From sequence record EF380022.1: a stretch of 5,386 nucleotides of DNA. One strand, written 5' to 3'. The notes under the pieces were generated by a model. It searched no databases. It was not told where the DNA came from and saw only the letters and a list, made by a program, of their open reading frames with translations. Within the stretch, counting starts at the first letter, position 1; each line of letters opens with the position of its first letter. Of the stretch, positions 1 to 3,955 are shown piece after piece. The position numbers and the translations under genes are program-made. This stretch comes from Escherichia phage phiX174.

Positions 1-51
1 GAGTTTTATCGCTTCCATGACGCAGAAGTTAACACTTTCGGATATTTCTGA
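1..51 (+). CDS. B: 3' end of internal scaffolding protein B ORF, continuing from 5075..5386; stop TGA at 49-51
   Basis: Frame from 5384-5386 (gca) continues gag ttt tat cgc ttc cat gac gca gaa gtt aac act ttc gga tat ttc tga; C-terminus ...EFYRFHDAEVNTFGYF matches protein B. Confidence 0.92.
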   Translation, partial: EFYRFHDAEVNTFGYF

Positions 52-136
52 TGAGTCGAAAAATTATCTTGATAAAGCAGGAATTACTACTGCTTGTTTA
101 CGAATTAAATCGAAGTGGACTGCTGGCGGAAAATGA
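1..136 (+). CDS. A: 3' end of replication initiation protein A (and A*) ORF, continuing from the window end across the circular junction; stop TGA at 134-136
   Basis: Reading frame entering from 5385-5386+1 (cag) stays open to TGA 134-136; encodes ...SFIASMTQKLTLSDISDESKNYLDKAGITTACLRIKSKWTAGGK, recognised as the A C-terminus. Partial only because the circle is linearised here. Confidence 0.93.
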   Translation, partial: SFIASMTQKLTLSDISDESKNYLDKAGITTACLRIKSKWTAGGK

Positions 137-221
137 GAAAATTCGACCTATCCTTGCGCAGCTCGAGAAGCTCTTACTTTGCGACTTTTCGCCATCAACT
201 AACGATTCTGTCAAAAACTGA
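51..221 (+). CDS. K: protein K, 56 aa (MSRKIILIKQELLLLVYELNRSGLLAENEKIRPILAQLEKLLLCDFSPSTNDSVKN)
   Basis: ATG at 51 overlaps the B stop (tgatg, 49-53); open to TGA 219-221; overlaps the A tail and C start in a third frame. Absent from the ORF track because it is shorter than the track minimum. Confidence 0.88.
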   Translation: MSRKIILIKQELLLLVYELNRSGLLAENEKIRPILAQLEKLLLCDFSPSTNDSVKN

Positions 222-369
222 CGCGTTGGATGAGGAGAAGTGGCTTAATATGCTTGGCACGTTCGTTAAGGACTGGTTTAGATATGAGTCACATTTTGTT
301 CATGGTAGAGATTCTCTTGTTGACATTTTAAAAGAGCGTGGATTACTATCTGAGTCCGATGCTGTTTAA
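133..369 (+). CDS. C: DNA maturation/packaging protein C, 78 aa here; ends at TAA 367-369, 8 codons before the canonical C stop (TGA 391-393)
   Basis: ATG 133-135 overlaps the A stop (ATGA, 133-136). Translation MRKFDLSLRSSRSSYFATFRHQLTILSKTDALDEEKWLNMLGTFVKDWFRYESHFVHGRDSLVDILKERGLLSESDAV then TAA. The track ORF 115..369 is the same frame with a GTG extension; ATG 133 is the canonical start. Confidence 0.85.
   Translation: MRKFDLSLRSSRSSYFATFRHQLTILSKTDALDEEKWLNMLGTFVKDWFRYESHFVHGRDSLVDILKERGLLSESDAV
320..349 (+). promoter_or_regulatory. candidate sigma70 promoter PD within the 3' part of gene C, driving D-E-J-F-G-H
   Basis: Perfect -35 TTGACA at 320-325; 18-nt spacer; -10-like TACTAT at 344-349; predicted start near 356-358, consistent with the known phiX174 D promoter location. 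Confidence 0.6.
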
Positions 370-389
370 CCACTAATAGGTAAGAAATC

Positions 390-848
390 ATGAGTCAAGT
401 TATTGAACAATCTGTACGTTTCCAGACCGCTTTGGCCTCTATTAAGCTCATTCAGGCTTCTGCCGTTTTGGATTTAACCGAAGATGATTTCGATTTTCTG
501 ACGAGTAACAAAGTTTGGATTGCTACTGACCGCTCTCGTGCTCGTCGCTGCGTTGAGGCTTGCGTTTATGGTACGCTGGACTTTGTGGGATACCCTCGCT
601 TTCCTGCTCCTGTTGAGTTTATTGCTGCCGTCATTGCTTATTATGTTCATCCCGTCAACATTCAAACGGCCTGTCTCATCATGGAAGGCGCTGAATTTAC
701 GGAAAACATTATTAATGGCGTCGAGCGTCCGGTTAAAGCTGCTGAATTGTTCGCGTTTACCTTGCGTGTACGCGCAGGAAACACTGACGTTCTTACTGAC
801 GCAGAAGAAAACGTGCGTCAAAAATTACGTGCAGAAGGAGTGATGTAA
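390..848 (+). CDS. D: external scaffolding protein D, 152 aa
   Basis: Track ORF 390..848; protein MSQVIEQSVRFQTALASIKLIQASAVLDLTEDDF... recognised as phiX174 D; AGG at 378-380 nine nt upstream; stop TAA 846-848 overlaps the J start (taatg). Confidence 0.95.
   Translation: MSQVIEQSVRFQTALASIKLIQASAVLDLTEDDFDFLTSNKVWIATDRSRARRCVEACVYGTLDFVGYPRFPAPVEFIAAVIAYYVHPVNIQTACLIMEGAEFTENIINGVERPVKAAELFAFTLRVRAGNTDVLTDAEENVRQKLRAEGVM
568..843 (+). CDS. E: lysis protein E, 91 aa, embedded in D in the +1 frame (single-gene lysis protein, MraY inhibitor)
   Basis: ATG 568 with GAGG at 555-558; MVRWTLWDTLAFLLLLSLLLPSLLIMFIPSTFKRPVSS...; N-terminal hydrophobic helix with Pro21 retained; stop TGA 841-843. Track ORF 520..843 is the same frame with a TTG extension. 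Codon 586-588 is TGG, so this is not the am3 amber allele. Confidence 0.93.
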   Translation: MVRWTLWDTLAFLLLLSLLLPSLLIMFIPSTFKRPVSSWKALNLRKTLLMASSVRLKLLNCSRLPCVYAQETLTFLLTQKKTCVKNYVQKE

Positions 849-2394: not shown

Positions 2395-2922
2395 ATGTTT
2401 CAGACTTTTATTTCTCGCCATAATTCAAACTTTTTTTCTGATAAGCTGGTTCTTACTTCTGTTACTCCAGCTTCTTCGGCACCTGTTTTACAGACACCTA
2501 AAGCTACATCGTCAACGTTATATTTTGATAGTTTGACGGTTAATGCTGGTAATGGTGGTTTTCTTCATTGCATTCAGATGGATACATCTGTCAACGCCGC
2601 TAATCAGGTTGTTTCTGTTGGTGCTGATATTGCTTTTGATGCCGACCCTAAATTTTTTGCCTGTTTGGTTCGCTTTGAGTTTTCTTCGGTTCCGACTACC
2701 CTTCCGACTGCCTATGATGTTTATCCTTTGGATGGTCGCCATGATGGTGGTTATTATACCGTCAAGGACTGTGTGACTATTGACGTCTTTCCCCGTACGC
2801 CGGGCAATAATGTTTATGTTGGTTTCATGGTTTGGTCTAACTTTACCGCTACTAAATGCCGCGGATTGGTTTCGCTGAATCAGGTTATTAAAGAGATTAT
2901 TTGTCTCCAGCCACTTAAGTGA
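2395..2922 (+). CDS. G: major spike protein G, 175 aa
   Basis: ATG 2395 with AGGAG at 2383-2387; [46 protein letters not shown]...; stop TGA 2920-2922. Track ORF 2350..2922 is the same frame with a TTG extension. Confidence 0.95.
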
Positions 2923-3917: not shown

Positions 3918-3926
3918 CCGTTAGGA

Positions 3927-3955
3927 TTGACATCCTCCCAATTGTATGTTTTCAT
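3927..3955 (+). promoter_or_regulatory. candidate promoter PA in the H-A intergenic region
   Basis: Perfect -35 TTGACA at 3927-3932; 17-nt spacer; weak -10-like TTTCAT at 3950-3955 (4 of 6 match to TATAAT). The exact -10 is uncertain. Confidence 0.45.

Follow-up and report, generated by a model that had tools for sequence, protein, structure and literature searches.

How a phiX174 genome can propagate with a gene C that ends eight codons before its canonical stop is the question raised by the locus studied here. Protein C switches replication to single-strand DNA synthesis (stage III) and acts in packaging. The truncated gene was met in a complete phiX174 genome of 5386 nt in standard numbering (EF380022.1), which was analyzed as a whole and is referred to below as the window. 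An earlier note on this DNA had left three options for the truncated allele, namely that it is tolerated, that it is a conditional mutant dependent on a suppressor host, or that it is a sequence error; it had also raised the possibility that the stop is natural in phiX174-like genomes such as S13.

Results

An ochre codon truncates gene C

Translation of the gene C frame from ATG 133 gave 78 codons, beginning with MRKF and ending with SESDAV, followed by TAA; past this codon, the frame reads PLIGKKS and then reaches TGA (Table 1). In the reference genome NC_001422, codon 79 of C is CAA, and the sole difference of the window at this codon is C367T, corresponding to C Q79* (ochre). The truncated protein is identical to residues 1-78 of wild-type C and has lost the peptide QPLIGKKS (8 residues). 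The earlier note had described the stop, the 78-aa product lacking eight codons, and the overlap of the former TGA with the D start correctly, with all coordinates in agreement with the window. Its assignment of CAA to 367 in phiX174, changed by C>T to an ochre codon that removes QPLIGKKS, was confirmed by the reference sequence. C contains only two CAA codons, Q22 and Q79, and TAA 367-369 was the sole internal stop across the 11 known phiX174 ORFs of the window. The other two changes within the truncated gene, C186T and C267T, are both synonymous in C. Gene C is situated between A/K and D, with an overlap with K, in the ORFs mapped in the window as well as in the annotated reference.

Table 1. 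Coordinates of features around the truncated gene C of the window, and C/D junctions of phiX174 and other microviruses
Feature	Position	Strand	Remarks
Truncated gene C	133..369	+	78 codons and TAA; CDS annotated identically in the closest public records
Ochre codon TAA	367..369	+	Result of C367T, which replaces Gln79 by a stop
Former C codons 80-86 (PLIGKKS)	370..389	+	Now an untranslated 20-nt spacer; holds the gene D Shine-Dalgarno sequence TAGGTAAG, ~377-384
ATGA junction	390..393	+	D start ATG 390-392 overlaps TGA 391-393, the canonical C stop; truncated C terminates before this TGA
Gene K	51..221	+	Intact; overlaps the 5' part of C; L46F from C186T
Gene D (external scaffolding protein)	390..848	+	Intact; T5I (C403T) and synonymous C413T near the start codon
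Promoter pD, within gene C	320..349	+	-35 TTGACA 320-325, 18-nt spacer, -10 TACTAT 344-349; 10/12 consensus matches
ID18 C/D junction			14-nt overlap
phiX174 C/D junction			4-nt overlap
G4 C/D junction			1-nt gap
alpha3 C/D junction	2476 to 2503		26-nt spacer
ID21 C/D junction	2478 to 2521		42-nt spacer
Mimer C/D junction			97-nt spacer

Origin of the genome in a laboratory lineage

The records EF380009-EF380032 originate from the study of Silander, Tenaillon & Chao (PLoS Biol 2007, PMC1845161). In this work, a clone obtained from B. Fane went through 100 passages at 32 °C, E. coli mutT served as host, and AP100 was the high-fitness ancestor; low-fitness "deleterious" (DEL) clones were obtained by bottlenecks and mutagenesis with hydroxylamine, and all lines were then propagated with hydroxylamine, 89% of the substitutions being C>T (PMC1845161). 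The genomes closest to the window were EF380031 (DEL1, 99.3% identity), EF380032 (DEL4), and EF380009 (AP100), all of which have T367 and a C at 133..369. Compared with NC_001422, the window showed 57 differences and 98.9% identity to phiX174, and it contained all 11 AP100 changes (367, 833, 1460, 1650, 1727, 2085, 2731, 2811, 3121, 3139, and 4518). The changes 1111T and 3346T were common only to the window and DEL1, and nine of the ten changes that distinguish DEL1 from AP100 were present, 3189G being absent. Versus DEL1, the window had 38 further changes, 35 of which (92%) were C>T on the + (packaged) strand (e.g., 186, 267, 403, 413, 740, 974, 981 ... 5141). Such a bias is the signature of hydroxylamine acting on single-stranded virions, a treatment described for these lines. 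Together with the complete set of AP100 changes and the changes private to DEL1, this spectrum fits a hydroxylamine-mutagenized DEL1 descendant, and from its sequence the window is probably a 90-transfer descendant of DEL1.

The AP100 changes beyond common lab-strain differences comprise three C>T as well as C>G, A>G, C>A, and G>A, and are without the C>T bias of the mutagenized lines. Since AP100 carries the stop without this bias, the stop was already present in the ancestor. The base 3339A is shared by all evolved lines and the two DEL clones and is absent from the AP100 record; this pattern, together with the lack of the DEL1 base 3189G in the window, indicates that the deposited AP100 and DEL1 clones are not the exact founders.

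Several further changes of these genomes lie outside the C/D region. C974T and C981T are located in the J-F intergenic region in the T_J terminator hairpin (969-982), where each converts a G-C to a G-U pair in the GGGGCTTCGGCCCC stem; the predicted stability of the hairpin falls from -11.8 to -6.2 kcal/mol. In the H-A intergenic region, two C>T changes at 3922 and 3933 flank the pA -35 element TTGACA (3927-3932), and 3922T is recurrent because it is also found in 10A90, 3E90, and EF380017. A transversion, 3178 T>A (H L83H), is common to the window, 250A55, 250B55, 3F90, 10D90, 3E90, and 10F90, and reflects either strong parallel selection or a polymorphism of the founding stock. The transversion 2315 A>T is private to the window and falls into the F-G intergenic region, which presumably comprises the complementary-strand origin and the primosome assembly site. 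In EF380013 (10A90), gene K is annotated as truncated (51..161), which presumably represents the only nonsense change reported among the 560 substitutions of the study, and which fits a nonessential K.

Distribution of T367 among sequence records

A 31-mer centered on T367, in which any 28-nt seed spans this position, was searched in 50,697 phage records. It matched 13 records, all of the EF3800xx series; the other 10 EF3800xx genomes have T367 with an extra change nearby, and T367 was found nowhere outside the series among the 50,697 records. Genome comparison revealed T367 in all 23 other genomes of the EF380009-EF380032 series, each with C annotated as 133..369. T367 was inherited within a single laboratory stock and is not a fresh lesion of the window genome, and the allele is already known, having been deposited and annotated since 2007.

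In a tblastn search of phage genomes, the C of S13 was 100% identical to the 86-aa form over 86 aa. The reading of T367 as a natural lineage feature fails for this reason, and the possibility that TAA occurs naturally at this site in phiX174-like genomes such as S13 had to be abandoned.

A search of a 5.8-billion-protein collection with wild-type C was discarded as a source of natural diversity; it gave only PhiX spike-in or assembly artefacts, with chimeric or extended ORFs of 97-100% identity. In a contig index that includes metagenome assemblies, 85 blocks list the exact 78-aa protein. The one non-NCBI entry inspected, JGI contig Ga0371429_1076345 (5294-5527), was rejected as an independent case: it is a PhiX spike-in that ends at nt 366 and has CAA in the other copy, and its 78-aa product is read as a contig-end artefact. 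A literature search for C367T or premature stops in protein C gave nothing usable.

The conserved core of protein C

The Pfam profile PF12025 (Phage_C, 68 positions) matched residues 5-72 of the 78-aa C over profile positions 1-68 of 68, that is, as a complete domain. The score was 170.3 bits for the 78-aa protein (cutoff 25; E = 7.5e-51) versus 169.9 bits for the 86-aa form. In an alignment of natural homologues, the 68-aa C proteins of alpha3 and ID21 end at the position aligned to phiX L72, and the C of the Pectobacterium phage Mimer ends near position 76, approximately four residues past L72. The C tails of G4 (84 aa) and ID18 (89 aa) have another length than the phiX tail and are unrelated to it in sequence. 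The truncated C consists of the whole conserved core plus six residues more. As judged from profile and alignments, the QPLIGKKS tail is not part of the family domain, shows no conservation between microvirus clades, and is missing from alpha3-group C proteins. The C/D junction also differs widely among the clades, from a 14-nt overlap to a 97-nt spacer (Table 1).

Alternative explanations of the premature stop

A premature stop in a gene that is normally regarded as essential could mean that gene C is a dispensable pseudogene and the stop a step in its decay. The C>T events in codons 1-72 of C in 17 descendant genomes make this extremely improbable: 14 were synonymous and 1 was missense, with 46% synonymous changes expected from the available C sites in these codons (P = 2e-4), and further stops or frameshifts in C were present in none of the lines. 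The C core is under continued purifying selection in the truncated background. Within nt 349-389 (41 nt, comprising the tail and former codons 80-86), 11 events on 8 C sites were counted in descendant lines, and C>T changes had gathered at 370, 371, and 373, positions that are noncoding after the TAA. Another explanation follows classical phiX174 genetics, in which a conditional-lethal ochre mutant of gene C (och6) is known: a suppressor host would read through the ochre codon to give full-length C, and on a normal host the phage would not survive. A literature search for och6 gave nothing usable, and the suppressor status of the E. coli mutT host is not stated in PMC1845161. In this same host, however, nonsense changes accounted for just 1 of 560 substitutions, though 9% of C>T sites involve stops (PMC1845161), and nonsense codons were thus not generally rescued. 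Moreover, ochre suppression works with low efficiency, which is at odds with the high fitness of the AP100 ancestor; the natural 68-aa C proteins indicate that the tail is not required for family function, and the whole Pfam domain is kept. Dependence on a suppressor is accordingly very unlikely. As T367 differs from the reference in one base only, an error of sequencing or assembly was also considered. The same base was reproduced in 23 separately deposited genomes in addition to the window, with different private mutations around it, and the depositors annotated the shortened CDS; with this degree of reproduction, an error is excluded for practical purposes. Among the three options of the earlier note, a tolerated truncation is thus favored, in agreement with the viable, plaque-forming lines (23 plus the ancestor), the intact domain, and the tail-less C of the alpha3 group. 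A natural short form of C was met in alpha3 and ID21 but not in S13, where C has full length.

A further explanation, compatible with a tolerated truncation, concerns gene D: C367T may have been fixed for an effect on D expression, the shortening of C being a by-product, although this is rather unlikely. T367 is among only approximately seven changes that part AP100 from common lab wild types, and it travels with 1460, 1727, and 2085, which we take to be classic adaptive capsid sites. The promoter pD is annotated as 320..358 (PMC11527146); a 2026 preprint assigns pD to C residues V63-S75 and reports that the D ribosome-binding site (RBS) is hit by synonymous changes in the C codons I82 and G83 (10.64898/2026.07.25.740675). 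With pD annotated to 358, nt 367 is located at approximately +10 of the D mRNA leader, and because of this position a regulatory side effect on D is possible; nt 367 is also 11 nt upstream of the D Shine-Dalgarno sequence. Such an effect could be exerted by an altered leader structure, or by uncoupling of C termination from the overlapping D initiation on long pA/pB transcripts. In agreement, T367 raised the opening cost of the D RBS (376-395) predicted with ViennaRNA by ~2 kcal/mol in four of four sequence windows. However, C367T ranked only 12-18 among 54 possible leader substitutions (mean +1.2, sd 1.4 kcal/mol) and on this basis does not stand out in the predicted accessibility of the D RBS; the structures themselves are weak, too, with ensemble values of about -8 to -15 kcal/mol. 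The recurrent changes C403T and C362T were predicted to be among the most RBS-opening C>T changes on the T367 background. C403T (D T5I) has two independent origins, one in the window and one in the 100C lineage (EF380021, 250A55, 250B55), the highest-fitness population, and may be beneficial or compensatory. C362T (C A77V, approximately +5 of the pD transcript) was found in the five lines 250B55, 3C90, 10A90, 10E90, and 10F90, the position being unchanged in the window. Both changes are also missense, however, and their predicted leader effect is to be taken as a lead, not as a finding. Adaptive down-regulation of D via pD mutations is documented (PMC3003669), but T367 was not reported in the Bull/Wichman experiments in the literature examined, and hitch-hiking or drift in one clone explains T367 equally well. 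Positive selection of C367T during the 100-transfer adaptation by retuning of D expression, via the leader or via C/D uncoupling, is given a low probability. If it applied, C362T and C403T would be additional changes that tune this leader or compensate within it, and the last codons of phiX174 C would essentially be a translated D leader rather than a functional peptide.

Discussion

The window is with high probability a mutagenized, bottlenecked descendant of DEL1 in which the stop was inherited from the AP100 ancestor and the truncation of C is tolerated. The ochre codon was already fixed in the laboratory-adapted ancestor and passed on to every line, rather than made in the window genome. 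The resulting 78-aa C keeps the entire conserved core and loses only QPLIGKKS, and the DNA of the former C tail would serve in phiX174 mainly as the 5' leader and RBS of gene D. C367T accordingly converts the overlapping ATGA junction to an order of C stop, short spacer with the D RBS, and D. The sequence comparisons suggest that the 78-aa C is fully functional, and a suppressor would not be needed. As the allele is inherited, already deposited, and removes only a nonconserved tail that some natural relatives lack, it is regarded as an ordinary one.

In the preprint cited above, every phiX174 codon was mutated; it gives 99% of the nonsense variants as lethal and names protein K as the only exception (10.64898/2026.07.25.740675). 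Q79* may have a cost in the wild-type background, and other capsid and replication changes of the lines could be epistatic with the truncation. Should C Q79* be listed as lethal in the complete data of the preprint, epistasis with the AP100 background, or an effect of host or temperature, must be invoked. The allele can hence be used as a check on this complete-mutagenesis map, in which nearly all nonsense variants are lethal. It also indicates that phiX174 can form plaques without the last eight residues of C, in keeping with the lack of these residues in the alpha3 group and their site outside Phage_C. It further marks the window as a mutagenized laboratory derivative and not as a natural variant, and it provides a modest clue to the way in which rearrangement is tolerated at the C/D junction and in the D leader.

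Among known systems, AP100, DEL1, DEL4, and the evolved lines (ABN49626 / UniRef100_A3FJB3 family) have the same C367T and a 78-aa C identical to that of the window. With DEL1, the window shares the AP100 and DEL1-private changes and the C>T-biased spectrum, but differs in its 38 additional changes. The canonical C of phiX174 and S13 (86 aa, NP_040707) is identical in residues 1-78 and has the same gene position, the overlap with K, and pD inside the gene; unlike this protein, that of the window is without QPLIGKKS, and the overlap of its stop with the D start codon has been lost. The pD substitutions G319T, T321C, A323G, and C324T of Brown et al. 2010 (PMC3003669) are, like C367T, single-base changes inside C that arose in laboratory adaptation. 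They lie within the -35 element, and a reduction of transcription was demonstrated for them, with the main effect on D, whereas C367T is downstream of the promoter and its effect on D is putative.

The C proteins of the alpha3 group (alpha3 NP_039593, ID21 YP_512382; 68 aa) are naturally short and, like the C of the window, end before the D RBS. They are ~40% identical to the C of the window and stop earlier, at the equivalent of phiX L72. Their shortness is ancestral to the clade, whereas that of the window arose recently, by a point mutation in a phiX174 genome. With its C stop placed upstream of the D Shine-Dalgarno sequence, the window has the alpha3-type order of a short C, a noncoding spacer with the D RBS, and D, the spacer comprising 20 nt versus 26-42 nt. 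Since the stretch is mainly the D 5' leader and RBS in phiX174, the single mutation turns the ATGA junction alpha3-like. Common descent of the window with Alphatrevirus was ruled out by the 98.9% identity of the genome to phiX174 and the low identity of the two C proteins, and the alpha3-like junction of the window is a case of convergence only.
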